A DNA stretch of 32,000 bases from Catenovulum adriaticum (GCF_026725475.1 NZ_CP109965.1:1333385-1365384); one strand, 5' to 3'. Shown: positions 2,192 to 32,000, counted from the stretch's first letter. The notes: a model not told the origin generated them from the letters alone. A program made the numbers and translations.

Positions 2192-2232
2192 GCTTTTATT
2201 TTTTATAACTGTATTTTTATAACTTTATTTTT

Positions 2233-2263
2233 AATAAGTCGCGGGTTTCTCCCGCGACTTATT
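2233..2263. terminator. Bidirectional intrinsic terminator between convergent genes
   Basis: Perfect 13-bp inverted repeat AATAAGTCGCGGG-tttct-CCCGCGACTTATT, flanked by T/A-rich runs on both sides. It sits between the stops at 2191 (+) and 2290 (-). Confidence 0.8.
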
Positions 2264-2289
2264 ATTTATTGAGCAATTTAGCAATTGAT

Positions 2290-3666
2290 TTAGCGTTTAA
2301 AATGTTGGTAAATTAAATCAAACACATCTGTCATTTGATAGTCTTTATCGCCAGCCAGTGAGTCAGGTAAAATTAAAATAGGTCCTTGCTCTGGGTTATC
2401 TACACAGCGCCCATGACTGCCTTTAACCAAGCTAGGGTCAAGCGGAATCACATCCATTAACATTCTAAAGCCAAGTTTTTTCTTAATCAGTTTGCCAATG
2501 ACTTTAAGTGTTGGAAATTTGATGTTTGGATCAACATACATTTCAACCGGATCATAACCAGGCTTTCGGTGAATATCGACTGTACGGGCAAAGTCAGGGG
2601 CTTTTTTATCATCAAGCCAATAATAATAGCTAAACCAAGCCTCTTTTGTACTAATAGCAACTAAATCACCACTGCGCTCGTGGTTAATATTCAAGGCTTG
2701 CTGCTCCGTTTTATCTAATACCTGTTCAACGCCTGGGGTTGCTAATAATAGTGTTTTAATTTCCGCTAGGCGCTCTGGCTTATTTATATAAATATGTGCA
2801 CATTGATGATCAGCAACGGCAAATGCATCACTAGCACCACAGTCTAAATTTTCAAAGCCTTTGGTTTCACGTACTTTTATACAGTCGTTTTTACGCAGAA
2901 TTTGGTTAATTGGGATAACTTGGTTCACTTGCGTGATCCCATATTCAGAAACAATCAGATACTCAGGTGAAAACGCTGCCAATTCTGAGATGATATTACC
3001 TACAACCGCATCTATCGCCTGAATATCTTTGGCGATATCTGGGTGATTTGGCCCAATTTTTTGTAAGTTATAATCTAAATGAGGTAAATAAACTAACTGT
3101 AAATCAGGTTTATTTTGTTTAAATTCTTCGATTGCAGCTTTACCTATCCATTGGCTCGCGCCTATACCTGCTTTAGGCCCCCAAAAATTAAAAAATGGAA
3201 AGATACCTATTTTATCTTCAATACCTTGGTGTAAGCCATTAGGCGATGAATAAAGGTCAAACACTTTGCCGCCGTCGGCTAAATAATGCGGACGGGGAGT
3301 TATGCTGTTATCAACGTTGGCGTACATGTTGTACCACCAAAATAATTTTGAAACTTTAAATTCCGGAATTTCACGTTTTAACACATCCCAAATTTTATCG
3401 CTTTGCACAATTTGATTGGCTTGTTTCCAAAAGCCAACTTCGGCTAGCTCTTTAAAATACCAGCCGTTACCTACAATGCCATGCTCATCTGCTGTTTTAC
3501 CAGTTACCATTGTGCTTTGTGCTGTGGTGGTCACAGCGGGGAAAACATCTTTTAATGGTTTTGATTGATAGCCTTGTTGAATTAACTTATTTAAATTTGG
3601 GGTATTGTCGCCCAACATATATGGGCTTAACCCAACAACATTGATAACGATTAATGGAGATGGCAT
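2290..3666 (-). CDS. eboF: Alkaline phosphatase / nucleotide pyrophosphatase-phosphodiesterase family protein (EboF-like)
   Basis: 458 aa. The N-terminus LIVINVVGLSP...FPAVTTTAQSTMVTGKTADEHGIVGNGWY is typical of the type I phosphodiesterase/NPP metal-site and nucleophile-Thr region. It is the last gene of the six-gene operon, 15 nt after the preceding stop. Confidence 0.8.
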   Translation of the reverse strand: MPSPLIVINVVGLSPYMLGDNTPNLNKLIQQGYQSKPLKDVFPAVTTTAQSTMVTGKTADEHGIVGNGWYFKELAEVGFWKQANQIVQSDKIWDVLKREIPEFKVSKLFWWYNMYANVDNSITPRPHYLADGGKVFDLYSSPNGLHQGIEDKIGIFPFFNFWGPKAGIGASQWIGKAAIEEFKQNKPDLQLVYLPHLDYNLQKIGPNHPDIAKDIQAIDAVVGNIISELAAFSPEYLIVSEYGITQVNQVIPINQILRKNDCIKVRETKGFENLDCGASDAFAVADHQCAHIYINKPERLAEIKTLLLATPGVEQVLDKTEQQALNINHERSGDLVAISTKEAWFSYYYWLDDKKAPDFARTVDIHRKPGYDPVEMYVDPNIKFPTLKVIGKLIKKKLGFRMLMDVIPLDPSLVKGSHGRCVDNPEQGPILILPDSLAGDKDYQMTDVFDLIYQHFKR

Positions 3667-3681
3667 TGTGATAATCCTTTA

Positions 3682-5013
3682 TTATGTAATTTTGTTTGCT
3701 AATAAATTGCGTTTGTTAAGTTGCGCTTCTAACCAAAAAAACTCTTCGCTTAAGCCTTGTGTTAAATCAAAAGAATCTTGTGCCTGACTGGTTAAATATT
3801 GCAGCCAAGTATAAGTTTCTATTTCAAGATAAGGCTTAAAATCAGCTTGAGACTGTAAATAATCTAAACAGGCTAATATGCCAGTTTGTGTTGTATTAAT
3901 TTTCTGAGCTTCACTTAATTTAATTTGGCTTAGATGAATAGGTACGTGATAATGTACAGTACAACTGAACTCAGGTTCACCTTGCAGCTGTTTTTGCGCT
4001 AAAACTTGATTGAGCTCAGCGCTATTTAAATCAGCTATATGAATTAAGTTGGTTTTGTTGTTTACGTTTGACTGATTTATTTTGCACTGATGAAGAAATT
4101 TTTTATCGTTTAATAGTTGGCAAAGCGCTTCAATATTGTGCTTGTTTTTAAGGGTTGCGTGAATAGCGTTAGATATTTGAATTTTACAAATTTGAATACC
4201 TGCTTCGCGAATTTTTTTAAGCGATAATTGAATATCTTCGTGCATTACCGCTTGGTGACAAGTGTCAAAACAGCAGCCAATATAATTTAAAATATCTTGC
4301 GCGGCTAAGCCTTTATTTTTTGCAGCGGGCAGCAAATCTTGCTTGAAAAAATCGATTAATTGTTGGCTGGATTCAAAAACACAATCAGGCTCCATTTCTA
4401 AACCAATTTGTATTCTAACTTGGGTGTTTTGTTCAAGTTGTTTTAAATATTGCGCCAGCTCAATTAAGTGTTCAATTGCAATTTGGTGTAATTGTGAGGT
4501 CCACTCTTTTGCATATGCTAGGGGCAGGGTCGATATTGCGCCTAAGTATCGTGTTTCTCCTTGGAGCTGAATTTGGGTTGCCGTTTTTTTGCAAATCGTT
4601 TGGCTTAATATATTTGCAAGATTTTGAGTGTACACAAGTCTTTTTTTATCAGCCCAAGTAGGCAAATAAACGGCTTGCTTAACAATGTCTTGGTGAAAAT
4701 TACCATACGGAAAACCATTTAAACTGGTTAGCGCAAGTTGGTTTTGTGTAATAACATTCACAAAATTTTGTAGGGCATCATTATCATTAACCAGCTGCTT
4801 TGCAACAGGAGACGCAAGCCATAAACCGGATGCCATTGAATTTTGCTGGCGTTTTTTTAAAACCGGATTAAACCAATTTTGAATATTGGCTAGCACTTGA
4901 GTTAATTCGGTACCCGGATGAACATTACTACAATAAGCAAGCTCTTGAGATTGCCATAAATTAATGGGCAGCATAAGTATTACATTTGATCGTTTATTAA
5001 GTGAATATATCAA
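3682..5013 (-). CDS. eboE: Xylose isomerase-like TIM-barrel protein (EboE-like)
   Basis: 443 aa. N-terminal YCSNVHPG, an internal GLEMEPDCV segment and CFDTCHQAV are typical of sugar-phosphate isomerase/epimerase TIM barrels. Its position between the TatD-like and NPP-like genes fits EboE. An alternative start is Met14 at 4974. Confidence 0.65.
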   Translation of the reverse strand: MIYSLNKRSNVILMLPINLWQSQELAYCSNVHPGTELTQVLANIQNWFNPVLKKRQQNSMASGLWLASPVAKQLVNDNDALQNFVNVITQNQLALTSLNGFPYGNFHQDIVKQAVYLPTWADKKRLVYTQNLANILSQTICKKTATQIQLQGETRYLGAISTLPLAYAKEWTSQLHQIAIEHLIELAQYLKQLEQNTQVRIQIGLEMEPDCVFESSQQLIDFFKQDLLPAAKNKGLAAQDILNYIGCCFDTCHQAVMHEDIQLSLKKIREAGIQICKIQISNAIHATLKNKHNIEALCQLLNDKKFLHQCKINQSNVNNKTNLIHIADLNSAELNQVLAQKQLQGEPEFSCTVHYHVPIHLSQIKLSEAQKINTTQTGILACLDYLQSQADFKPYLEIETYTWLQYLTSQAQDSFDLTQGLSEEFFWLEAQLNKRNLLANKIT

Positions 5014-5067
5014 TTTGTCAGCAAGTAAGACGGTTTAAATAATAACAAATTGATGAAAATTAAGGCA

Positions 5068-5102
5068 ATTGAGTTTGTGCGTATTTAGTCCGCACAAACT
5101 CA
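5068..5102 (-). other. Intra-operon stem-loop between eboB and eboE
   Basis: 13-bp perfect inverted repeat TTGAGTTTGTGCG-(9 nt)-CGCACAAACTCAA in the 97-nt eboB-eboE gap. On the transcribed strand it is followed by a partly T-rich tract (ttgccttaattttc). Confidence 0.6.
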
Positions 5103-5110
5103 ATAAGCGG

Positions 5111-5995
5111 TTAGTTTTTTTCAATAATAGGATCTTGGCCGCGAGTCACTCTATTATCATTGTAGGTTTGAGTTTGATCAATTAATGGTTTTTTCACCAT
5201 ATCAATTGATATACGGCCACTTTGAGCAAAAAAGTTAATTGGGTTATTAAAAGTAACTAATTCAACATCGGCTTCACTAAATCCTGATTCAAGCATATGT
5301 TTAGCTGTTTTAGGTACTTTAAGCGGATCACTAATGCCCCAATCAGCTGCACTATTGATTATCATTTTCTCAGTGCCGTACTCTTTTAATAAGTTAACCA
5401 TACGAGGTTCAGACATTTTAGTATTTGGATAAATACTGTGCCCACGCCAACAGTTTGTTTCTAACACTAGTGGGAGTGTTTGCTCGTTTAAATGATCAAC
5501 TAATACCATTTCTTCGGCGATACCACTTTCTTTAATGGCATCTAATGTGCGTTTGGTACCATTGATTTTGTCTCTGTGTGGCGTATGAATCAGCACTGGT
5601 AGCTCTAAATTTTTAGCCAGTTCTAATTGCTCTAGTAAAAACCTGTCTTCTTCTGGTGTCATGTCGTCGTAACCAATTTCACCTACGCCAACTACATTAT
5701 CTTTTTGACAGTAACGCGGTAATAATTTCATAACTGCTTCGGCCAGTTCAACATCGTTAGACTCTTTAGGATTTAGCCCCATAGTACAAAAGTGCATAAT
5801 GCCAAATTGTGATGCCCTAAAATGTTCCCAGCCAATTAATGTATCAAAATAATCAATAAATGAACCAACTTGTGTTCGTGGTTGACCTAACCAAAATGCA
5901 GGTTCAATTACCCCAACAATTCCGGCTTCGGCCATGTTCTGATAATCATCTGTAGTGCGTGACAGCATGTGGATATGCGGGTCAAAATAATTCAT
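5111..5995 (-). CDS. eboB: TatD-family metal-dependent hydrolase (EboB-like)
   Basis: 294 aa. It begins MNYFDPHIHM (the amidohydrolase HxH motif) and has further His/Asp/Glu motifs (VGEIGYD, LIHTPH, INSAADW). Confidence 0.8.
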   Translation of the reverse strand: MNYFDPHIHMLSRTTDDYQNMAEAGIVGVIEPAFWLGQPRTQVGSFIDYFDTLIGWEHFRASQFGIMHFCTMGLNPKESNDVELAEAVMKLLPRYCQKDNVVGVGEIGYDDMTPEEDRFLLEQLELAKNLELPVLIHTPHRDKINGTKRTLDAIKESGIAEEMVLVDHLNEQTLPLVLETNCWRGHSIYPNTKMSEPRMVNLLKEYGTEKMIINSAADWGISDPLKVPKTAKHMLESGFSEADVELVTFNNPINFFAQSGRISIDMVKKPLIDQTQTYNDNRVTRGQDPIIEKN

Positions 5996-6047
5996 AAATC
6001 ATCCTTATTAATGCTAATGCGTGCCGGCATAAGCGTTGATACTTATA

Positions 6048-6842
6048 TTAATCTAACAATGAGAGCGCATTTTGCTCATGAAGCTGTTGATTTATTTGTG
6101 CCTGATGCTGAGCATCTTGATGCATAAAATGCTTAAGGTACTGTTGAACCTGGCTTTGATTGTTGTTATCAAGCTGGTTAAAAATAACGGCTTGCCAAAT
6201 TGAAGCCGGAGGCAATCTGTCTGCCAGTGCTTGCTCAATTGCGTAAGCAAAACACATGTTAGATAACTTAGGGTTTAGCCTGTTTTTTAAGTTTGTTATT
6301 TGGCTAATATCTAAGCCCATAAATAAAGATTTTAAGACCAACTGATTAAAATTAAGTTCCGGAAAATATTCAGCTGGGTAGGGGTTATTAAGTGCAATCG
6401 CTGAATACTCAATTAAGCTATTGCAACGGCAAGCTTTAATTGCCGTTTGTACGGCTAGACCTTGAGGATCAAGCCAGATTAAACTTGCTAGTAAAGCACA
6501 TTTTTCACTTTCATCGCCAAACTGATAGTAGTTTTTTAATAGTTTGGTTGTGACCTCTGTTTGTGACTCAAACGTTATTTTTTTGTCGGTTTCAAGCGCG
6601 TTTTTAATTAATAGCAGTCTAACTAACTGAGCTAAGTTTAATGCGTTAAACTCAGCTGAAAAATCAATTTCTTGGGTGAACTTTCTTTTAACAAAAACCG
6701 ATTGATTGAGTAGCTCAAGTTCTAAATCATCATGGGTTTTAGCTTGCTTAATTAGCTTAATTGCTTTTGTTAACCAAGACTGTTGTTCATCTGTTAATAA
6801 CGGCGAAAGCTGTTCGGAAATTTTTGTCACTAAATTATTCAT
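6048..6842 (-). CDS. eboA: Hypothetical protein, EboA-like by position
   Basis: 264 aa with no motif I recognise. It is translationally coupled to the upstream UbiA gene by a 2-nt gap. The call rests on operon context only. Confidence 0.45.
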   Translation of the reverse strand: MNNLVTKISEQLSPLLTDEQQSWLTKAIKLIKQAKTHDDLELELLNQSVFVKRKFTQEIDFSAEFNALNLAQLVRLLLIKNALETDKKITFESQTEVTTKLLKNYYQFGDESEKCALLASLIWLDPQGLAVQTAIKACRCNSLIEYSAIALNNPYPAEYFPELNFNQLVLKSLFMGLDISQITNLKNRLNPKLSNMCFAYAIEQALADRLPPASIWQAVIFNQLDNNNQSQVQQYLKHFMHQDAQHQAQINQQLHEQNALSLLD

Positions 6843-6844
6843 TT

Positions 6845-7753
6845 TTAGGTCATGTATAAATATTTACTTAAGATACGACAGGGTGGCAATAAAGCGAGTA
6901 CCACCAATGCCCAAATGTAATATCCGGAAATAGCCAACATTAGCGCATCGAGTGGGATTACACCAATAATCATAAACATGATCATTTTTTGAATGTTATC
7001 AGGCGTGAAGTTAAACCAAAGCGGTATTAAACGTTTCAGCATTAAAATAAGCCAAACCACAATTAAACCACTACCGATTAATTGAGTTTGAATTGATTCA
7101 CCTAATACATAAAACAGCAACATAAATAAGCTGGCTGCCGTGGCTAGCAATAATCCAGAGGTTAGCCATAATGCATTACGATTTTTAGCTTGGGTCTCTT
7201 GCTTACTCAAAAAGGTTAAGCCAGTGATATAAAACCAAATGGGTAGGGCAATTAAATAGATACTTTGAGGTAAAACTTGCTCGCTTGATTGAAACGTAAA
7301 AACAACAAAACTTGCGCCTAATAGCCAATTAAAATAACGACAAAAGCCCATCATAATAGAACCGGCTAAGCCTTCTTTAAAAACACTGTTGTAAAGCAAA
7401 ATACAAGCGGCTAACCCAAACCCAACGTAAAAAGGAATTAAATTAGGCCATGAAAAATAAGCGCTTAATAATAAACCTGCGGCCATTAAACCTAAGCCAA
7501 ACAGCCAGCCTATTTTTAGTGAGATTTGTCCGCTGGGGAGCGGTCGGTTTGCACGTTCTGCTAAATCTTCTTTGTAATCAAAGCAATCATTAAGCGCCAT
7601 ACCGCCATAATAAAAAGCGAGACTAGCCAGCACCAAAATTACTAGGCTACTGTTGACTTGACCAGAACTAGCAATTACTGAGGCCGCAATTATATTACTT
7701 ATTGCGGTTAATCCATTTGGCGCTCTAACTAGTTGTAATATCGATTTTAACAT
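6845..7753 (-). CDS. eboC: UbiA-family aromatic/polyprenyl prenyltransferase, integral membrane (EboC-like)
   Basis: 302 aa and very hydrophobic (about 8-9 TM segments). It carries the first Asp-rich motif NDCFDYKEDLAERANRPLPSG (NDxxDxxxD). Its start overlaps the upstream stop by 1 nt (TAATG). Confidence 0.85.
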   Translation of the reverse strand: MLKSILQLVRAPNGLTAISNIIAASVIASSGQVNSSLVILVLASLAFYYGGMALNDCFDYKEDLAERANRPLPSGQISLKIGWLFGLGLMAAGLLLSAYFSWPNLIPFYVGFGLAACILLYNSVFKEGLAGSIMMGFCRYFNWLLGASFVVFTFQSSEQVLPQSIYLIALPIWFYITGLTFLSKQETQAKNRNALWLTSGLLLATAASLFMLLFYVLGESIQTQLIGSGLIVVWLILMLKRLIPLWFNFTPDNIQKMIMFMIIGVIPLDALMLAISGYYIWALVVLALLPPCRILSKYLYMT

Positions 7754-8934
7754 TATGCTACTTGCTCAATCAGCTGGCAATATTGCTCAGATTGAATGCA
7801 TTTAACTGAATCCGCCATGATTTGAATATCAATTTCATTGACTTCAAAACCTTTGCCAATTCCGTTTAATAAAGTAATACATAGGCGACCGCCCAAATGC
7901 TCTTTAAATTCGTTAAGTGCTTGCTCTACATTTAATTTACGTAGGGCAGGGTGATTTAACTCAAAACCTAACACATCGAGCAATGATAAAATTTGTTTTA
8001 ATTCATGCTCGCTTAAATAGCCAAGTTTGAACGAATAAATGCTGTCCATTGCAATACCAATGGCAACGGCTTCACCATGTCTTAGTTCATTATTCGATAA
8101 TTCTTCCAGTTTATGTGCAGACCAATGACCAAAATCTAATGGACGCGCACTACCATATTCAAAGGCATCACCGCTGTTTGCGATATGATTTAAATGCCAT
8201 TTTGCGCCCTTAATAATCATGTTTTCCATGGAGACATCTTCAAATTGAGCTAATAAATGGCGGGCTTGATAAAGCTCATTAAAAAAGCGTTGGTCTTTGA
8301 TTAATGCCACTTTTATGGCTTCGGAAATACCAGACCGCTTGTCGCGGTTAGATAAAGAATCGAGTAAATCAAAGTCGTTTACAACTGCAAAAGGGGGGAC
8401 AAAAGTGCCTAAATAATTTTTGCGTTTGTGGTAGTTAATTGCGTTTTTAACGCCAACACCGGCATCGTTTTGACCTAAAACTGTGCTTGGCATTCTAATT
8501 AAACGAATCCCTCTGTGGGCGGTTGCAGCTGCAAAGCCGACAGCATCAACCACAGCACCACCGCCGATTACTAAAATATATGAGTGTCGGTCAATTGCAT
8601 GTGTTTCTACAGCTTGGTAAATAGTATCTAATAATAGTTCATCATTTTTACAAGCTTCGCCGCCTTGAATAATAATTTCAGGCAATACAGGGATTTGATG
8701 GGTTTTATAATAATTTTTTAATTGTGCGATTAATTCAGGTTGATGCTTTGCCACCTCAGAATCAATAACAGGTAATAGCTTAGGAGATTCATGTAAGTTA
8801 TCAATGAGCTTAAATAAGGTATCGTTGCTTACATTAAAACTTTGCCGGGTAAATAATACTGGATAATCATAACTCACCTGAAATTGTTGACGGATATTAA
8901 CTGACGAATAGTCAAATGGATTATTTTGAGTCAT
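7753..8934 (-). CDS. eboD: 3-dehydroquinate synthase-like sugar phosphate cyclase (EboD-like)
   Basis: 393 aa. It has the Gly-rich nucleotide-binding motif VIGGGAVVDAVGFAAATAHRGIRLIRMPSTVLGQNDAGVGVKNAIN and the metal-site region HGEAVAIGIAMD, both typical of the DHQS/EEVS superfamily. It is the first gene of the operon. Confidence 0.85.
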   Translation of the reverse strand: MTQNNPFDYSSVNIRQQFQVSYDYPVLFTRQSFNVSNDTLFKLIDNLHESPKLLPVIDSEVAKHQPELIAQLKNYYKTHQIPVLPEIIIQGGEACKNDELLLDTIYQAVETHAIDRHSYILVIGGGAVVDAVGFAAATAHRGIRLIRMPSTVLGQNDAGVGVKNAINYHKRKNYLGTFVPPFAVVNDFDLLDSLSNRDKRSGISEAIKVALIKDQRFFNELYQARHLLAQFEDVSMENMIIKGAKWHLNHIANSGDAFEYGSARPLDFGHWSAHKLEELSNNELRHGEAVAIGIAMDSIYSFKLGYLSEHELKQILSLLDVLGFELNHPALRKLNVEQALNEFKEHLGGRLCITLLNGIGKGFEVNEIDIQIMADSVKCIQSEQYCQLIEQVA

Positions 8935-9206
8935 GTTTACCTCTTTAGTACGACGACAAATCTGTACATTAGAATCGCTAATAAGCTTCAGTTATTACTA
9001 AAATATTAATCAAAGGCAAATAGTATAACCTTAGTTCAACACAATCAATATTATATGTTGAAATGCTGTTATAGTTTTTGTTTTTTAGGGTATAACGTTT
9101 ACTATTTATTCATTTTAGACTACCAGAAATCTGTATTTGACGTTTTTTACCGTTTAAAAAGAGGCTTTGGTGTTAACAATTTACCGCAAACTAATTGCTT
9201 ATATTT

Positions 9207-9230
9207 AGACGTTTAGACGTCTAGACGTAA
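9207..9230 (+). promoter_or_regulatory. Three tandem MetJ boxes upstream of metA
   Basis: AGACGTTT-AGACGTCT-AGACGTAA are three contiguous 8-bp repeats matching the met-box consensus AGACGTCT. They sit 5 bp upstream of a candidate promoter: TTGACA at 9236-9241, a 17-bp spacer, then AACAAT at 9259-9264. Confidence 0.8.
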
Positions 9231-21246: not shown

Positions 21247-22359
21247 ATGAAATTGAACACAGCTGCAGAAATAATTGAAGATATCCAGCAGGGTAAAATT
21301 GTTATATTAATGGATGATGAAGACAGAGAAAACGAAGGCGATATGATAGTTGCAGCGCAGCATTGTACCCCACAAGCAATTAACTTTATGGCGACTCATG
21401 GGCGTGGTTTAATTTGTTTAACGCTGACTAAAGACCGTTGCCAGCAACTTGATTTACCTTTAATGGTAGATCGTAATCAAGCTCAATTTGGTACTAATTT
21501 TACGTTGTCTATTGAAGCAGCCACCGGTGTAACAACAGGGATATCAGCGGCAGATCGTTCAACCACGGTTAGAGCCGCGGTCGCACGCGATGCAAAACCA
21601 GAAGATATTGTACAACCGGGTCATATTTTTCCGATTATGGCGCAAGAAGGTGGCGTGTTAAATAGAGCCGGACATACAGAAGCAGGCTGCGATTTAGCAC
21701 GTTTGGCTGGGTTGGAACCAGCTGGTGTTATCGTCGAAATTTTAAATGAAGACGGTACTATGTCGCGCCGGCCCGAGCTTGAAAAATTTGCACAAAAGCA
21801 TGATTTAAAAATTGGTACTATTGCTGATTTAATTGAATACAGAAACAATACAGAAACTACAATTGAAAAAATTGCAGAATGCAAATTACCAACTGAGTTT
21901 GGTGAATTTGACTTAATTACCTTTAAAGATACGATCGATGGTCAGGTACATTTTGCATTAAAAAATACTGAGCTAACGCCTGATAAACCCAGTTTAGTAA
22001 GGGTTCATGTTAAAGATATTTTGGCTGATTTATTAGGCTCAACCCGAGACGAAAGCAAAAATTGGACGCTGAGTCGCTCACTGGAACGAATTGCTCAAGA
22101 AGGTGGTGTGTTGCTGTTATTGGGTAAAAATGAAACGCCAGAAGAGTTAATGGCTAAAGTGAGCGGATATCAGCTTGAAGATGAAGGCAAACCAGTCCGT
22201 CGAATCGATAGCTGGCAACAGACGTCTCGCACCGTCGGTGTCGGCTCGCAAATATTATCGGCGTTAAATGTTGGCAAAATGCGTTTATTGAGCTCACAAA
22301 AAAAATATCATTCTTTAGCCGGTTTCGGTTTAGAAGTAGTTGAATACGTTGACGAATAG
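21247..22359 (+). CDS. ribB: 3,4-dihydroxy-2-butanone-4-phosphate synthase fused to a degenerate GTP cyclohydrolase II-like domain (RibBX-type)
   Basis: The N-terminal half has DHBPS motifs ([29 protein letters not shown]). The C-terminal half aligns with GCHII, but the zinc-Cys region reads [23 protein letters not shown] and contains no cysteine. Confidence 0.85.
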
Positions 22360-24913: not shown

Positions 24914-25756
24914 ATGATAGAATTAACCGCCATTGATTATAACGGACCAGAAGCGGCCGAACGATTTGTTGAATCACTTAAACAAACAGGCTTTGGAGTG
25001 CTTAAAAATCACCCGTTATCAAAAAATTTAGTTCAAGATTTATATCTGCAATGGCAGCAATTTTTTGATTCAACTCATAAATATGATTTTGAATTTACTC
25101 AGCCTAAACAAGATGGATTTTTTTCAACTAACAAAGCTGAAACTGCCAAAGGCGCACAATATCAAGATTTAAAAGAATACTTTCATTATTACCCTTGGGG
25201 TCAATGTCCGGAAGACTTAACGCAAATAACACTGGATTATTATCAAAAAGCTAATCGGTTAGCACAAACATTATTAACTTGGGTTGAAGCGGAATCTCCA
25301 AATATTGTTTCAAAGCATTATACTCAGCCCTTATCTAGCATGATTGAAAATAGCGAAAATACTTTACTGCGTATTTTGCATTATCCCCCTCTTAAAAAAG
25401 ATCAAACCATTGGTGCAATAAGAGCCGCCGCCCACGAAGACATTAATTTATTAACGGTTTTACCTGCTGCTAATGAGCCAGGCTTACAAGTTAAAACTTT
25501 AACGGGGGAGTGGCTTGATGTACCCAGTGATTTTGGTTATATAATTATTAATACTGGCGATATGTTACAAGAAGCTTCAAATGGCTACTTTCCGTCTACA
25601 ACCCATAGAGTTATCAACCCAACGGGAGCAGGACAAACCCAATCGCGCATATCAATGCCACTTTTTTTACATGCCCGGCCAGATGTAAAATTATCAGATA
25701 GATATACAGCTCAGAGTTACTTAATAGAGCGTTTAACAGAACTCGGGGTTTTGTAA
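24914..25756 (+). CDS. 2-oxoglutarate/Fe(II)-dependent oxygenase (isopenicillin N synthase-like family), substrate unknown
   Basis: 280 aa. It has the facial-triad HxD (AAAHEDINLLTV), a distal His (PSTTHRV) and an RxS 2OG-binding motif (SRISMPLF). Confidence 0.8.
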   Translation: MIELTAIDYNGPEAAERFVESLKQTGFGVLKNHPLSKNLVQDLYLQWQQFFDSTHKYDFEFTQPKQDGFFSTNKAETAKGAQYQDLKEYFHYYPWGQCPEDLTQITLDYYQKANRLAQTLLTWVEAESPNIVSKHYTQPLSSMIENSENTLLRILHYPPLKKDQTIGAIRAAAHEDINLLTVLPAANEPGLQVKTLTGEWLDVPSDFGYIIINTGDMLQEASNGYFPSTTHRVINPTGAGQTQSRISMPLFLHARPDVKLSDRYTAQSYLIERLTELGVL

Positions 25757-25765
25757 ACTTTATAG

Positions 25766-26275
25766 CAATCGTGATTTATTCATATATCAATGTTATACAA
25801 AAGCCGAAGACAGAGGGTTCAGGTAGCAGCGATTTTACATCGCGTGAAAACACGTAATCAGGTTAATTTATACATGCAAAGCTTTAAAAACGCGGGGTAA
25901 ACCCGCTGCTACGGGCTAGGTTATGGTGTCTGGTTCATGTATCAATATTATACAAAAGCCGAAGACAGACGGTTCAGGTAGCAGCGATTTTATATCGCGT
26001 GAAAACACGTAATTAGGTTAATTTATACATGCAAAGCTTTAAAAACGCGGGGTAAACCCGCTGCTACGGGCTAGGTTATGGTGTCTGGTTCACGTAACGC
26101 GATTTATTCATGTATTAATGTGATAAAAAAGGGCCCGAAGGCCCAAGGGTGTTAAGATGGTTCAGGTAGCAGCGATTTTACATCGCGTGAAAACATGTAA
26201 TCAGGCTAATTTATAACATGCAAAGCTTTAAAAACGCGGGGGAAACCCGCTGCCACTAAGCGATTTTTATGACTG
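25766..26275. repeat. Tandem array of about 3.2 structured repeat units (periods 155 and 188 bp) between convergent genes, running into the sulA 3' end
   Basis: The core GGTTCAGGTAGCAGCGATTTTACATCGCGTGAAAACACGTAATCAGGTTAATTTATACATGCAAAGCTTTAAAAACGCGGGGTAAACCCGCTGCTACGGGCTAGGTTATGGTGTCTGGTTCA starts at 25816, 25971 and 26159. Copies 1 and 2 differ at only 2 positions; copy 3 is more diverged. Each unit contains the hairpins GCGGG-n5-CCCGC and CGTG-aaaa-CACG, plus a long-range stem GTAGCAGCG/CGCTGCTAC. Confidence 0.9.
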
Positions 26276-26681
26276 TATTATTGGTTGAGTTACGCTTAGA
26301 TCCTGTTGGTTTAATCATAATACAAGCTGCATTTGAACTTTGAGCTGTTTCGATTAAGCTGTTTCTTTCAGCTTTTTCTAATTCATCAAACCAAGCTACC
26401 ACAGCACAGCATTTTCCTAACTTTAAGGCTTTTTCAGATATTTTGGCAATGTTGTCATTTGCGTGCGGATGTATAACTAACATTCTGTTTAGTTGAATAC
26501 CAGCTTGCGCTAAACGCTGTTTACTTGGCATTTTTTTTGGTGCGACAACACAAAGCCAGCGGTTATCTTCTTGTAGCCTTGCAATACCAGCCCAAAATCG
26601 CATTTCAAATAGATCACTAGTCGAGTTAGTCGAAAAGAAACGAGTATTTCTTACAGCATCAGTCAATATATAGGTATTCAT
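26256..26681 (-). CDS. sulA: SOS cell division inhibitor SulA
   Basis: 141 aa. The segment NRWLCVVAPKKMPSKQRLAQAGIQLNRMLVIHPHANDNIAKISEKALKLGKCCAVVAWFDELEKAERNSLIETAQSSNAACIMIKP aligns along its length with E. coli SulA ([31 protein letters not shown]...[22 protein letters not shown]...AANEGNAMGFIMRP). LexA boxes lie upstream. Confidence 0.85.
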   Translation of the reverse strand: MNTYILTDAVRNTRFFSTNSTSDLFEMRFWAGIARLQEDNRWLCVVAPKKMPSKQRLAQAGIQLNRMLVIHPHANDNIAKISEKALKLGKCCAVVAWFDELEKAERNSLIETAQSSNAACIMIKPTGSKRNSTNNTVIKIA

Positions 26682-27457: not shown

Positions 27458-27883
27458 ATGGACAATCACTATATTATTATTTTTGATGGCGTTTGCAATT
27501 TTTGTCATGGCGCTGTTAATTTTATCATTAAGCGCGATTATGCTAATCAATTTGTATTTGCGCCTATGCAAAGCCCTGCGGCACAAAGATTAATGGCAGA
27601 GTATAAATTAGCAGACGCTGGATGTGATTCTTTCATATTGATAAAAAAAGGTCATTGTTATTTAAGAACGCATGCAGCAATTGAAGTCACTAAAGATTTA
27701 TCTGGTGCTTGGTATTTATTGTCGGTGTTTAAGGTAGTACCCGCGGTGATTCGTGATTATTTTTATCGTTTGTTAGCGTCAAATCGATATAAATGGTTTG
27801 GTAAAAAAGATCGCTGCTTAATGCCTGATGAGAAACTTGATAGTAAGTTTTTGTGGTCAGAAGCATCTCTGTATAAATTATAA
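27458..27883 (+). CDS. Thiol-disulfide oxidoreductase DCC family protein (DUF393)
   Basis: 141 aa. The N-terminal IIFDGVCNFCHGAVNFIIKRD carries the CxxC motif characteristic of DCC/YuxK-like proteins. Confidence 0.8.
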   Translation: MDNHYIIIFDGVCNFCHGAVNFIIKRDYANQFVFAPMQSPAAQRLMAEYKLADAGCDSFILIKKGHCYLRTHAAIEVTKDLSGAWYLLSVFKVVPAVIRDYFYRLLASNRYKWFGKKDRCLMPDEKLDSKFLWSEASLYKL

Positions 27884-28048: not shown

Positions 28049-30451
28049 TTAATGACGGCTTAATTCAACTGAAGTTGAAAATACTTGAAGTACAGCTGAA
28101 CTCACAAAACCGCCAGTGTCTGAAAATTCAACCGTAACCGTGTTACTTGCTTGAAGTTGATCATAAGGAACCGGAATTTCAATCACGCCAAAAAAGTTAG
28201 GTCGGCCAGTTGCTGTTTTGCCTTGTTTTTGATCGTAGCCTTTTACATCAGAAGGCACTGATACTAAATTGCCATTAACAGCGACAACTGGAGAAAGCGA
28301 CTTATCATGGTCTCGCCCTAATCCTAAGCGTAAAACCGCTTCCCCTTGAGCATTGACACTTACATCGTCAAATGTAAAGTTAATGGCTTGGTTAGCATTT
28401 ATTGCTTGTTGGTAGGTAGTTGCGTAGTAGCGTTTTTCAGTATTAGATTCGGTTACCTCAATATTGTTTGCATACTCTAAACGGATAATGGTTGTGGCTT
28501 CTGCAGGTAATGTTAGCGCTTCTGGCAGCTCCGTTAAGGTTTCTTCAATGAATTGAGATTCATTATTAGCTGTATAGCTTAACTCTTTATAACTAATTGA
28601 ATCTAAAGTGTTACCGTCGACACCAAGGGCGTTTAAGTTAATTTTTACATCTTCAAACTCTAGGTTGGTTAATACAATGTAAGCCTGGTTGCCATCAACA
28701 TAGCTATCCGTTAATACATCTATTTCGTCAGAATAGCTATCTACTCGAGTACCTGTTACTTGTGACCATAATTTGTAGAAGTTGACATGATCTGAATAAA
28801 CCCAAGTGTCATCATTCGAACCATCACGTTCTTTTTTCTGAACCATCAAACGACTAGAGTAAGCGATGCTTTTTCCGTTTACTTCACGGCGTCCCCATTC
28901 TGCTTTTACAGGTATAAAAGGAATAACTTTTAAAATATTATTAGGTCGCTCTAAAAATTGAGTATTCATGGTCGTAATTGATAATACCTTTTCAGCATCA
29001 CGTTGAGGTGTCCAGTCTTCATTTACTCTAGCATGTACCGATGAGCCCACTTCTGAAATTAAAATGGGTTTAACCTGACCAAATTTTAAATAAGTATAGT
29101 GCTCAAGCATATCAAGTGTCGCTTCTAAGTTACTGCCTCGGCGGTATCGCTCTGAGTTTTGAAACGTAGGAAAGTCATATAAATGGATTGATATAAAATC
29201 CATGTTTTCACCGGCTGTATCAATAAAGAGTTTGTCTCTTTCTTCCCAACGTTGAAAATTATTTTTATCAAAATCAGGGAAGGCAATGGTATAACCTCCA
29301 ATCATAATATCGTCATTTTTACTTTCTTTTCTAATTTCTGCCGCCACTGTATTATGAAACTCAAAGACTTTTAGGGGTTCAACATAATTAGCTTGGCCTT
29401 CACGATCTGTCGTTAAATCATATAAAGGCTCGTTCATTACTTCAAAGTAAGTGGGTTTGGTTTGGCCCATATCAGTTTCACTTTGAGCAAAAAAGTTTGC
29501 TAAAAATTGCGACATATAATGGCCCGTTGCTGTTCCGAAGGGTTCTTGCGCAGTATCTGTTTGCGAAAATGCCCAGTCGGGATCGCCATTTACAGGCTTT
29601 ATTAACGTACCTTCTGGCCAATATGGATGTTGCTGACCACCAGCAATCATATCTTGCATTCGATCTTCTACTAAACGGGCATTTACGTTTTTATAACTTG
29701 TGCCATTATCGTAAATCCACTTAACATCACCGCCACGTTGACTGGCAGATGTTTCATCTACAAAACCCGGTTTAGTCGCATCTTGTGAGACATTACGTAA
29801 GTTCCAGCCTATTGAACCAGTATCTCGGCCAAAATAAACGTCATAGCCGCGCATAAAATCTAGCATTAAATCTTCACCTAATTCGTTAGGTGCATCTAAG
29901 CTATGTACATCGTTTTGACCCCAACCATTCTCTAAATTATTTGCATGTATCGTAATATACTTTTGTCGGTCTAAGGTTTCTATTCCGCCAACACTATGCT
30001 TCATGTTTAAATTGACATCCACTTGAACAACACCATCGTCAATAATTTGCTCGGCTAAGGTCGTTACCGTGAAAGTTTGGGTTACCCCACCTATGCTTAA
30101 TGTCGCTGAATTTTCGGTTAAAAAAGTACTGGATGATTGTAATCTAACGACGACCGAATCTTGGTTGTTTACTTGCCCCTCAGATTGAGTGAATTCGCCC
30201 CCATTAACTGCATATTCACCACCTTCAATTGAAATAGGGGTTGCTGTATTAATACCGCTTACCGTCACCGTATTTGAGTTAATCTGGGTATTTAAAGTGG
30301 CGTCGTCAATTGCGGTTAGGGTAAAGTTATTAGGTGTTGTATCTTTAGCGGTTTCTTCTGGGGTATTGGCGTCATCTGATCCTCCAGATCCGCCACAGGC
30401 TGTTAAATTGAGCGCTGAAGCAATACAAATTGCGGCTAAGCTGAATTTCAT
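28049..30451 (-). CDS. Clan GH-A glycoside hydrolase lipoprotein, GH86-like (candidate beta-agarase/porphyranase)
   Basis: The likely start is ATG 30451, giving MKFSLAAICIASALNLTAC (lipobox LTAC) and a GGSGGSDD linker. An Ig-like N-terminal domain follows. The TIM barrel has the acid/base motif YFEVMNEP and the nucleophile motif ILISEVGS, 126 aa apart. About 270 aa of C-terminal beta-sandwich-like sequence follows. The GH86 assignment relies on remembered architecture and catalytic-Glu spacing and is not verified. Confidence 0.55.
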   Translation of the reverse strand: MKFSLAAICIASALNLTACGGSGGSDDANTPEETAKDTTPNNFTLTAIDDATLNTQINSNTVTVSGINTATPISIEGGEYAVNGGEFTQSEGQVNNQDSVVVRLQSSSTFLTENSATLSIGGVTQTFTVTTLAEQIIDDGVVQVDVNLNMKHSVGGIETLDRQKYITIHANNLENGWGQNDVHSLDAPNELGEDLMLDFMRGYDVYFGRDTGSIGWNLRNVSQDATKPGFVDETSASQRGGDVKWIYDNGTSYKNVNARLVEDRMQDMIAGGQQHPYWPEGTLIKPVNGDPDWAFSQTDTAQEPFGTATGHYMSQFLANFFAQSETDMGQTKPTYFEVMNEPLYDLTTDREGQANYVEPLKVFEFHNTVAAEIRKESKNDDIMIGGYTIAFPDFDKNNFQRWEERDKLFIDTAGENMDFISIHLYDFPTFQNSERYRRGSNLEATLDMLEHYTYLKFGQVKPILISEVGSSVHARVNEDWTPQRDAEKVLSITTMNTQFLERPNNILKVIPFIPVKAEWGRREVNGKSIAYSSRLMVQKKERDGSNDDTWVYSDHVNFYKLWSQVTGTRVDSYSDEIDVLTDSYVDGNQAYIVLTNLEFEDVKINLNALGVDGNTLDSISYKELSYTANNESQFIEETLTELPEALTLPAEATTIIRLEYANNIEVTESNTEKRYYATTYQQAINANQAINFTFDDVSVNAQGEAVLRLGLGRDHDKSLSPVVAVNGNLVSVPSDVKGYDQKQGKTATGRPNFFGVIEIPVPYDQLQASNTVTVEFSDTGGFVSSAVLQVFSTSVELSRH

Positions 30452-30871
30452 CTTACGATCGATTAATGTCATGTTAACACCTTGCATAGGATTGATTATA
30501 AAATTTTAATTTGGTTAATTTTATACATAATTTTGTATATTGTATACAATAATTGTGTTTTTAATGTTTTATTAATGCATGTTAGATGTTGTTTGTTTTG
30601 TTGAAATGTAAAAATAGAAACTAGCTTTATACGCGCTCTGTTATCATTAGATGAAAACAGATAAAAGGCAGGAATATAGCTAAATAATGGTTAGTCATTG
30701 TTTAGCTAAAAATATAAGCATTTAATTTTTAGGGATATATTTTGATATAGTCTTAAATAAAATACTTTGTATTAGGCATGTTTTTATTTATAAAGTTATA
30801 AGATAATTAGGTATTAAATAAGTATTTTTACTACAATTGTTAGTAAGTATAAACAGGAATCATGGTTACTG

Positions 30872-32000
30872 ATGACCAAACTGACGTTACAGCAAACGCT
30901 TAAATTATTTTTAGTCTCTATTGTTTTGATTGGTATTACTTGTCTTTACATTGTTAATTCAACGCTTCATAAAGCTCAGGAGAATGAAGAGTGGGTGACT
31001 CATACCTATCAAGTTATTATTGTATTAGAGTCTGTTAGAAATCATATCCAAATAGCAGAGTCAAACCAACGTGGTTTTTTATTGACGTTAAATGAGGCTT
31101 ATCTTGATTCTTTCACTGAGTCTATCGATTTAGCTCTTGATGAATTAGTTAAATTAAAGCAGCTAACCACAGATAGTTTAGAGCAACAACAAAAACTTAA
31201 ATCGCTAACCAAACTCACTCAAGCTAAATTTTCAGAGCTCAAAAAAACCGTGCAATTAGCGAAATCAAGTCAATTATCCGAATCATTAAATATATTAAAA
31301 AATAATTCGGGTAAAAAGTTAATGGACCAGATTAACACGATAATTACCCAGCTTAATGATCACGAAAAATACTTACTCAAAATACGTAAAAATGCTTTTA
31401 ACGATGCTAAAAACATGAGTAAATTCCTATTTATTGGATGCATTATTTTAATTTTATTTTTGGTTTTTAGCGCTACGATTTATATAAAAAGAAGTGCCAT
31501 TGACCCACTTGCAAAATTAACACAGCAACTAACAAACACAACAGACGATAATATGCCATCTATTAGCTCAAAGCACGCTAGTGTAGAAGTAAAACTACTG
31601 AGCAATACGCTAAAAAGGTTGATGCAGGATGTTAATTATAACATGAATGCACTTAAACTAGCTCAAAGAACAGCAGAAGAAAGTAGCCAAATCAAAACTC
31701 AGTTTTTGTCTAACATGAGCCATGAAATTCGTACGCCATTAAACGGTATTATTGGTACCTTACAAATTTTAGCCCAGAGCAAAAACGAGATAAAAATTCA
31801 AAATTTAATTGATAAATCGCTTCTTTCAAGTAAGAGTTTATTAACCATTATTAATGATATTTTAGATTTCTCTAAAATGGATGCTGGTATGCTAAATCTT
31901 GAAAAAACGGTATTTGCGTTCAAAGAAATTGCAGAATTAGTTATTTCAGATTTAACGGCCATAGCTAGAGAAAAAGGCATAGCGTTAGAATTGCATTATG
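30872..32000 (+). CDS. CHASE3-domain sensor histidine kinase (partial; continues past the window end)
   Basis: An open frame from ATG 30872 is absent from the ORF track because it has no stop within the window. It has TM1 (LFLVSIVLIGITCLYIV), a periplasmic CHASE3-like segment (WVTHTYQVIIVLESV...ESNQRGFLLT...YL), TM2 (FLFIGCIILILFLVFSATIYI), and the H-box FLSNMSHEIRTPLNGIIG. Confidence 0.8.
   Translation, partial: MTKLTLQQTLKLFLVSIVLIGITCLYIVNSTLHKAQENEEWVTHTYQVIIVLESVRNHIQIAESNQRGFLLTLNEAYLDSFTESIDLALDELVKLKQLTTDSLEQQQKLKSLTKLTQAKFSELKKTVQLAKSSQLSESLNILKNNSGKKLMDQINTIITQLNDHEKYLLKIRKNAFNDAKNMSKFLFIGCIILILFLVFSATIYIKRSAIDPLAKLTQQLTNTTDDNMPSISSKHASVEVKLLSNTLKRLMQDVNYNMNALKLAQRTAEESSQIKTQFLSNMSHEIRTPLNGIIGTLQILAQSKNEIKIQNLIDKSLLSSKSLLTIINDILDFSKMDAGMLNLEKTVFAFKEIAELVISDLTAIAREKGIALELHY

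Follow-up and report, generated by a model that had tools for sequence, protein, structure and literature searches.

A complete ebo operon in Catenovulum adriaticum, most likely directing the synthesis of a thallusin-type meroterpenoid

What is made by a compact operon of six genes standing among housekeeping genes is the question raised by a 32,000-nucleotide stretch of DNA (hereafter the window) from Catenovulum adriaticum (Alteromonadaceae, also found under the name Catenovulum sp. TS8; GCF_026725475.1, NZ_CP109965.1:1333385-1365384). The operon, at positions 2290-8934, is of the ebo (eustigmatophyte-bacterial operon) type, a cluster that Yurchenko et al. (2016, PMC5133447) defined on the basis of eustigmatophyte plastids and bacteria. 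The operon is real, intact and complete, of the eboA type and with the gene order D-C-A-B-E-F, and its product is most likely a secreted meroterpenoid of the thallusin/saccharoquinoline type, an assignment held with moderate confidence. The original prediction, made by a model from the sequence, had named ties of this gene set to eustigmatophyte plastids, to the EDB locus of Pseudomonas fluorescens and to scytonemin export in Nostoc, all of which are found in the literature (accessible parts of PMC5133447, PMC12904256 and PMC6282210). Its statement that the product had never been defined is out of date, given the work on EboC (PMC9235831) and a thallusin preprint (10.64898/2026.05.21.724671).

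Six minus-strand open reading frames (ORFs) occupy the interval, with no competing long ORFs, and are transcribed in the order eboD-C-A-B-E-F (Table 1). The encoded proteins are identical to the consecutive C. adriaticum proteins WAJ71361-WAJ71356, which are encoded on a replicon of 3.2 Mb, and the window also matches a Logan contig from run SRR21890345. Two of the six genes are already called Ebo in the NCBI annotation. With profile E-values from 1e-33 to 1e-158 and a block that is kept in 12 other species, the operon is far beyond chance. The eboD and eboC genes overlap by 1 nt (TAATG), and the gaps are 2 nt between eboC and eboA (if eboA starts at ATG 6842), 52 nt between eboA and eboB, and 15 nt between eboE and eboF; the eboB-eboE spacer measures 136 nt to the ATG of eboE and 97 nt to the TTG. 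The original prediction was right about the tight co-oriented packing, the overlap and the 2-nt and 15-nt gaps, and left the 52- and 136-nt gaps unmentioned. The ATG of eboD is preceded, at a distance of 5 nt, by a strong Shine-Dalgarno sequence, AAAGAGG. Rfam, tRNA and terminator scans revealed no convincing terminator and no RNA element inside the operon. The single overlap, the short gaps, the lack of an internal terminator and the presence of a terminal hairpin support an operon structure, suggesting that the six genes are likely co-transcribed.

The operon is bordered by housekeeping genes: zipA and a SirB1-like gene lie beyond eboF, and metA, metH and rluF beyond eboD, and no pigment genes occur in the window, so that the operon stands alone in the way originally described. 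The G+C content of the operon is the same as that of its flanks. A recently acquired horizontal island was considered and rejected, because of this G+C content and because the insertion site is common to Catenovulum sp. 2E275 and an Alteromonadaceae metagenome-assembled genome (MAG). Other Catenovulum species carry the ebo cluster in differing genomic contexts.

To place the operon among its relatives, species-representative genomes were scanned, yielding 12 loci, all from Alteromonadales: Catenovulum species, the Alteromonadaceae MAG, Thalassotalea, Agaribacter and Colwellia/Colwelliaceae. In this synteny comparison, of the kind proposed in the original prediction, the D-C-A-B-E-F order is found in 11 of the 12 other loci, the exception being Catenovulum maritimum, which has no adjacent eboD. 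In C. maritimum Q1, the place of eboD beside eboC is taken by an unrelated ORF of 466 aa whose N-terminus is hydrophobic (L009, 5973-7373), and eboD may be located elsewhere in the genome or have been lost. In Agaribacter flavus, a 197-aa Fic-domain ORF with the motif HPFREGNGR (L004, 11535-12128) splits the operon between eboE and eboF. The metA and sirB1-like flanks are common only to the window, Catenovulum sp. 2E275 and the MAG, and the other flanks differ. Clustering of all flanking ORFs of the 12 loci found no accessory gene, such as one for a ring-cleaving oxygenase or an aspartate-handling enzyme, shared across lineages; as no other neighbour is conserved, the six genes are a self-contained unit. 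Searches with EboA and EboE named further relatives in Saccharobesus, Gayadomonas, Paraglaciecola, Shewanella gaetbuli, Photobacterium and Granulosicoccaceae, which are mostly marine and include many degraders of algal polysaccharides. The nearest cluster-carrying relatives, Catenovulum, Saccharobesus, Agaribacter, Paraglaciecola, Colwellia and Gayadomonas, are degraders of algal polysaccharides.

The PGAP-annotated plasmid clusters of Aureibacter tunicatorum (Bacteroidota) and Roseivivax marinus (Alphaproteobacteria) were used for calibration, as stand-ins for validated producers. The genes are ordered ABCDEF in Aureibacter and D-E-C, then F reversed, then A-B in Roseivivax. The window proteins are 54% (EboB), 46-48% (EboD), 48% (EboF) and approximately 29% (EboE) identical to those of the two clusters, and the C-terminal domain of EboA is approximately 32% identical. 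Complete ebo clusters are also present on large plasmids or chromids of Streptomyces, Mycetohabitans, Ketogulonicigenium, Salipiger, Roseivivax, Deinococcus, Azospirillum and Aureibacter (Aureibacter pAT1, L014; Roseivivax, L015; and 45 other plasmid records). The Roseivivax plasmid cluster adjoins genes for RND efflux and for a tripartite tricarboxylate transporter, the latter being of interest because thallusin is a tricarboxylate.

The six domain calls of the original prediction (DHQS-like, UbiA, no motif in the third protein, TatD-like, TIM barrel and NPP) are correct according to NCBIfam and Pfam, and the third protein, EboA, now has matches of its own, given below. EboD matches Pfam DHQ_synthase and DHQS_C and scores 526 bits on NF004852 (cutoff 333) and 212.9 bits on TIGR01357 aroB, under its cutoff of 305. 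The EboD proteins of Aureibacter and Roseivivax behave in the same way: NF004852 gives them 531 and 552 bits, and aroB 237 and 202, so that NF004852 works in practice as the model of the EboD type. The nearest solved structure is ValA, an EEVS (4p53). EboC, which contains a Pfam UbiA domain and approximately 8-9 hydrophobic stretches, has NF035940 EboC as its best NCBIfam match with 164.6 bits, under the equivalog cutoff of 250, followed by the SCO3242 family with 132 bits. The Aureibacter and Roseivivax EboC proteins score 342 and 85.8 bits on NF035940 and so bracket the window protein; judged by these scores, missing the cutoff appears to be normal outside Bacteroidota and Cyanobacteria. Over its full length, EboC shares 30% identity with the protein that PGAP names EboC in Aureibacter. 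Residues N55, D56, D59 and D63 (NDxxDxxxD), Y48 and R139 are invariant in 15 EboC sequences, and the Tyr and Arg equivalents were put in the aromatic-substrate pocket in the work on the homologue Ubi-297 (PMC9235831). By analogy, EboC is predicted to farnesylate a hydroxyquinaldic acid intermediate.

The catalytic motifs are intact in EboB, EboC, EboD, EboE and EboF. EboB matches Pfam TatD_DNase with an E-value of 2e-12, and its nearest solved relative is the uncharacterised AF_1765 (3guw), with 104 bits versus no more than 28 bits for true TatD DNases. Across Alteromonadales genera EboB is 81-94% identical and EboE 45-60%, and 117 of the 294 EboB residues, including H7, H9, E106, H137, H140, H168 and D218, are invariant in an alignment of Alteromonadales sequences with one from Bacteroidota and one alphaproteobacterial sequence. 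Besides retaining metal ligands of the amidohydrolase type, EboB is strikingly conserved, on a par with MetH (90-91% in the two closest genomes); for EboE, EboA and EboC of the same operons the identity is only 42-70%. Of 1.84 billion cluster representatives searched, only 172 matched EboB with an E-value of at most 1e-30. EboE, 100% identical to a 'metabolite traffic protein EboE [Catenovulum adriaticum]', scores 340.5 bits on NF035939 TIM_EboE (cutoff 250). A sequence search among solved structures gave no match for EboE. Its AlphaFold model (pLDDT 92.6) is a xylose-isomerase-like TIM barrel, for which Foldseek returned, with probability 1.0 and at most 12% identity, SCO6571, the L-xylulose-5-phosphate 3-epimerase UlaE, the isomerase Art22, xylose isomerases and a keto-glucal hydratase. 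The invariant residues of EboE include E193, E195, D237, H240, H295, E384 and E386, and on the model these acidic and histidine residues would fit a divalent-metal site. EboE is therefore plausibly a metal-dependent isomerase, epimerase or dehydratase that would act on a keto-cyclitol on the way toward the aromatic ring. EboF matches Pfam Phosphodiest (PF01663) with an E-value of 4.5e-60 and has invariant residues including T46, D286, H287, H291 and H418. The DNA-repair pair YtkR4/YtkR5, which resembles the pairing of a TatD-like protein with an EndoIV-like TIM barrel, was dropped as the main reading of EboB and EboE, since single deletions of eboB or eboE abolish thallusin.

EboA scores 114.3 bits on NF035938 EboA_domain (cutoff 50) and carries a precomputed Pfam record, PF28008 EboA, with no other Pfam match. 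On the full-length EboA_family model it reaches 89.7 bits against a cutoff of 320, which the EboA proteins of two other PGAP-annotated clusters also fail. Its AlphaFold model (pLDDT 97.1) consists of helices only, in a repeat-like arrangement, and a fold search with this model gave no significant match in the PDB (best E-value 0.17, TM-scores at most 0.42). EboA is 42-63% identical within Alteromonadales, and it is absent from Planctomycetota producers (10.64898/2026.05.21.724671). This absence and the fast evolution of the protein fit an adaptor or scaffold, and EboA is probably a non-catalytic helical protein of that kind rather than a core catalyst. The eleven invariant polar residues of EboA make a binding or catalytic role possible. 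Because EboA, EboB, EboD, EboE and EboF have neither a signal peptide nor a membrane segment, the early steps of the pathway are expected to be cytoplasmic.

Thallusin is a bacterial signal that shapes seaweed growth, and work from 2024-2026 has tied ebo to it. In a bioRxiv preprint of May 2026, Kallscheuer et al. (10.64898/2026.05.21.724671) assigned the ebo genes to thallusin/saccharoquinoline biosynthesis. Thallusin production went together with the presence of ebo in 35 strains of four phyla and in 3 cyanobacteria. In Stieleria maiorica, both thallusin and Ulva morphogenesis were lost when eboB, eboC, eboE or eboF was deleted singly. Labelling demonstrated that the quinoline core takes up the nitrogen of L-aspartate together with its four carbons, and EboC from three phyla farnesylated 6,7,8-trihydroxyquinaldate in vitro. 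In the pathway of that preprint, prenylation comes after the condensation of a cyclitol with aspartate and the aromatisation to a quinoline, and the cells secrete the product. In addition, Ubi-297 farnesylates 8-hydroxyquinaldic acid (8-HQA) and related quinolines (2022, PMC9235831), and a characterised EboD converts mannose-6-phosphate to DEI, a C6 deoxy-inosose (2024 work, as given in the accessible part of the review PMC12904256).

Applied to C. adriaticum, these data suggest the following route. EboD would make a keto-cyclitol, as its homologues have been shown to do. EboE, EboB and EboF would join the cyclitol to the C4N unit of L-aspartate by condensation and bring about the aromatisation that gives a trihydroxyquinoline-2-carboxylate, with EboA as a probable helical adaptor; we infer the assignment of these steps to the three proteins, whose requirement, like the incorporation of aspartate, was shown in other phyla. 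EboC would then attach, and possibly cyclise, a farnesyl group in the membrane, in line with the in vitro farnesylation by three homologues, and saccharoquinoline would be turned into thallusin by oxidative ring opening. The product would act on the macroalgal host as a morphogen and/or an iron-binding compound. The lifestyle of the carriers supports this product: their nearest representatives degrade algal polysaccharides, and a protein with beta-porphyranase domains is encoded 19 kb from the operon. The prenylated, lipid-anchored cyclitol or cyclitol phosphate suggested in the original prediction is not the best reading, as the quinoline is formed before prenylation and the product is secreted (10.64898/2026.05.21.724671).

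Several points weigh against a thallusin-type product. The assignment leans largely on one non-peer-reviewed preprint, whose strain table holds no ebo-carrying gammaproteobacterium; the sole Pseudomonadota producer among its tested strains is the alphaproteobacterium Tranquillimonas, and Alteromonas macleodii, which lacks ebo, is a non-producer (10.64898/2026.05.21.724671). The literature assigns no individual steps to EboA, EboB, EboE and EboF, no enzyme for the final oxidation was seen at the ebo locus, and a literature search found no paper linking Catenovulum or its relatives to thallusin. According to the accessible part of the review PMC12904256, the read-outs of the gammaproteobacterial EDB locus are indole/tryptophol derivatives and nematode repellence, not thallusin. 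Moreover, the EboC score does not reach the equivalog cutoff, and identity to the Bacteroidota type is only approximately 30% for EboC, EboE and EboA, a divergence that makes a modified product possible.

The same divergence, set beside identities of 42-70% within the order, speaks for a related but different prenylated cyclitol-derived metabolite, with another prenyl length, no ring opening or another amino-acid partner, and a target that may not be green-algal morphogenesis. The EboC score of 164.6 bits against 250, the absence of an ebo-carrying gammaproteobacterium from the strains tested for thallusin (10.64898/2026.05.21.724671) and a D-C-A-B-E-F order that differs from those given in the accessible main text of PMC5133447 all agree with such a metabolite. 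However, the alphaproteobacterial-type EboC of Roseivivax is more divergent still (85.8 bits), yet a related ebo-carrying alphaproteobacterium makes thallusin; producers in five phyla make the same compound from very unlike gene orders (10.64898/2026.05.21.724671); and Y48, R139 and NDxxDxxxD are kept in EboC. We therefore regard a different metabolite as unlikely, albeit the least unlikely of the rival explanations. A role in metabolite traffic, the lipid-carrier option of the original prediction, in which a membrane prenyl-cyclitol carrier would aid the export of other metabolites to the periplasm, is improbable. It derives from Nostoc punctiforme ebo mutants, in which the scytonemin precursor builds up in the cytoplasm (accessible part of PMC6282210), and survives in the NCBI name of EboE, but neither the window nor the surroundings of the 12 related clusters contain genes for scytonemin or another pigment, EboC homologues prenylate aromatic quinolines and not cyclitols (PMC9235831; 10.64898/2026.05.21.724671), and N. 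punctiforme itself secretes thallusin, the scytonemin effect being possibly indirect according to the authors (10.64898/2026.05.21.724671).

An anti-grazing locus like EDB, controlling the production of indole derivatives as repellents of grazing nematodes or protists, is marginally less probable again. The EDB cluster of P. fluorescens NZI7, consisting of six ebo homologues and three extra genes, is needed to repel Caenorhabditis elegans, and its expression in Escherichia coli gave tryptophol and indole products (accessible part of PMC12904256). The three extra genes are absent here, a comparison of gene content that draws on the accessible part of this review only, and the indole phenotype is perhaps a downstream or regulatory effect. 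Ordinary primary metabolism, that is, a true AroB and a UbiA/MenA quinone prenyltransferase adjacent by chance, is what the NCBI names '3-dehydroquinate synthase' for the eboD product and 'UbiA family prenyltransferase' for the eboC product would imply, and this explanation is effectively refuted. The profile hidden Markov model searches proposed in the original prediction support the ebo families instead: EboD fails the AroB equivalog and passes NF004852, as do the EboD proteins of other clusters, none of the UbiA, MenA and chlorophyll-synthase equivalog models comes near its cutoff for EboC in the NCBIfam search, EboA and EboE belong to ebo-specific families, and the six-gene block is kept as a unit in differing contexts. 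A secreted thallusin/saccharoquinoline-type meroterpenoid thus remains the preferred product.

Table 1. Coordinates of the ebo genes and of the associated non-coding features in the window
Feature	Position	Strand	Length	Description
eboD	7753-8934	-	393 aa	DHQS-like sugar-phosphate cyclase; identical to WAJ71361.1
eboC	6845-7753	-	302 aa	UbiA-type membrane prenyltransferase
eboA	6048-6842	-	264 aa	Soluble all-alpha helical-repeat protein; GTG 6830 is an alternative start
eboB	5111-5995	-	294 aa	TatD-like metal-dependent hydrolase of the amidohydrolase fold
eboE	3682-4974	-	430 aa	Length from ATG 4974 (NCBI and Logan start); frame open to TTG 5013 (443 aa)
eboF	2290-3666	-	458 aa	NPP-type phosphohydrolase of the alkaline-phosphatase superfamily, last gene of the operon; identical to WAJ71356.1
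Hairpin	2232-2264			G+C-rich, 14-bp stem, between the convergent eboF and sirB1-like genes (terminator scan)
Upstream block	9020-9075	-		Non-coding; weak sigma-70-like TTGATT-17-TACTAT, approximately 85 nt upstream of the eboD start

Regarding the expression of the operon, the hairpin downstream of eboF is likely a bidirectional terminator that closes it. At the other end, the divergent eboD and metA genes are separated by 364 nt, within which the upstream block is kept in the window, Catenovulum sp. 2E275 and the Alteromonadaceae MAG and the surrounding spacer is not. Its sigma-70-like element, at about 9020-9048, matches 8 of 12 consensus positions and was thus not flagged by the consensus scan. 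On the basis of this conservation, the block is a candidate promoter or operator of ebo. The eboB-eboE spacer contains a promoter-like sequence, TTGCCT-18-TATTAT with an extended-10 TG (5039-5068, minus strand), a possible internal promoter for eboE-eboF. Closer to metA, three tandem 8-bp MetJ-type boxes, which read TTACGTCT AGACGTCT AAACGTCT on the minus strand (9207-9230), adjoin the promoter-like TTGACA-17-AACAAT of metA, the boxes lying upstream. These boxes do not vary between the window, Catenovulum sp. 2E275 and the MAG, and probably regulate metA, not the divergent ebo operon.

Elsewhere in the window, the beta-porphyranase-type protein mentioned above (28049-30487, minus strand) has 812 amino acids and the domains Porphyrn_cat_1 and BPA_C, those of a red-algal galactan hydrolase, and its gene points toward a macroalga-associated lifestyle. 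A 280-aa 2OG-Fe(II) oxygenase (DIOX_N and 2OG-FeII_Oxy) is encoded at 24914-25756 on the plus strand, downstream of thiL-pgpA and 16 kb from ebo; it is unlikely to be the ring-opening enzyme, having no linkage to ebo in the 12 related loci. The sole Rfam match in the window, to the Vibrio antisense RNA V_AS9 (51.3 bits, gathering score 50), is located at 21344-21447 on the minus strand, antisense inside the ORF 21247-22359 of a riboflavin gene group, which we take to be ribBA from its position. A SulA-like cell-division inhibitor (26256-26681, minus strand), a DCC1-like thiol-disulfide oxidoreductase (27458-27883, plus strand) and a CHASE3/HisKA sensor kinase cut short by the window end (30818-32000, plus strand) are also encoded.

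The ebo gene set is known and now largely explained, and the locus is otherwise an ordinary example of a widespread cluster; the remaining interest lies in the Alteromonadales as a group of probable thallusin-type producers. Thallusin production by C. adriaticum, if real, would be a first for Gammaproteobacteria and would join a polysaccharide-degrading "consumer" lifestyle to a picomolar algal growth signal, which bears on seaweed microbiome ecology and aquaculture. A wider hypothesis, offered tentatively, is that agar/porphyran-degrading Alteromonadales (Catenovulum, Agaribacter, Paraglaciecola, Colwellia and Thalassotalea) are unrecognised producers of thallusin-type morphogens, whereby digesters of red-algal cell walls would also steer algal development, possibly with a lineage variant set by the fast-evolving EboC, EboE and EboA, the last being a helical scaffold of unsolved fold. 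As a compact six-gene operon without accessory genes, the locus is also a minimal cassette for heterologous reconstitution, which could help to assign the aspartate condensation, the aromatisation and the oxidative ring opening.

In comparison with known systems, the operon most resembles the ebo cluster itself (PMC5133447; 10.64898/2026.05.21.724671), with which it shares all six EboA-F families, EboC as a probable member, co-oriented and tightly packed with their catalytic motifs kept, and, like most non-cyanobacterial carriers, it stands alone. It differs from that cluster in gene order, which is ABCDEF in Bacteroidota and Cyanobacteria and of the D-E-C-F-A-B type in alphaproteobacteria, the Pseudomonadota arrangements being noted to differ (10.64898/2026.05.21.724671), in scores under the NCBIfam cutoffs for EboC and the EboA_family model, and in its host, a gammaproteobacterial degrader of agar and porphyran. 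The EDB locus of P. fluorescens NZI7 is likewise gammaproteobacterial and has homologues of all six ebo genes, whereas its three extra genes have no counterpart in the Alteromonadales loci, which keep only the six, and its phenotype is nematode repellence through indole derivatives (accessible part of PMC12904256). The ebo-like clusters of Actinomycetota (Saccharomonospora; SCO3242-type prenyltransferase) have the core eboB, eboC, eboE and eboF in common with the window, and the SCO3242 family is second-best for its EboC; the actinomycete type, however, lacks eboD and carries ino1-3 (10.64898/2026.05.21.724671), whereas the window has eboD and no ino genes. Finally, EboD has the fold and the NAD- and metal-binding motifs of the sugar-phosphate cyclases DHQS, EEVS, DDGS and DOIS, to which it is 25-35% identical, but it fails the AroB equivalog, and the characterised EboD yields a C6 deoxy-inosose, not dehydroquinate or a C7 cyclitol.

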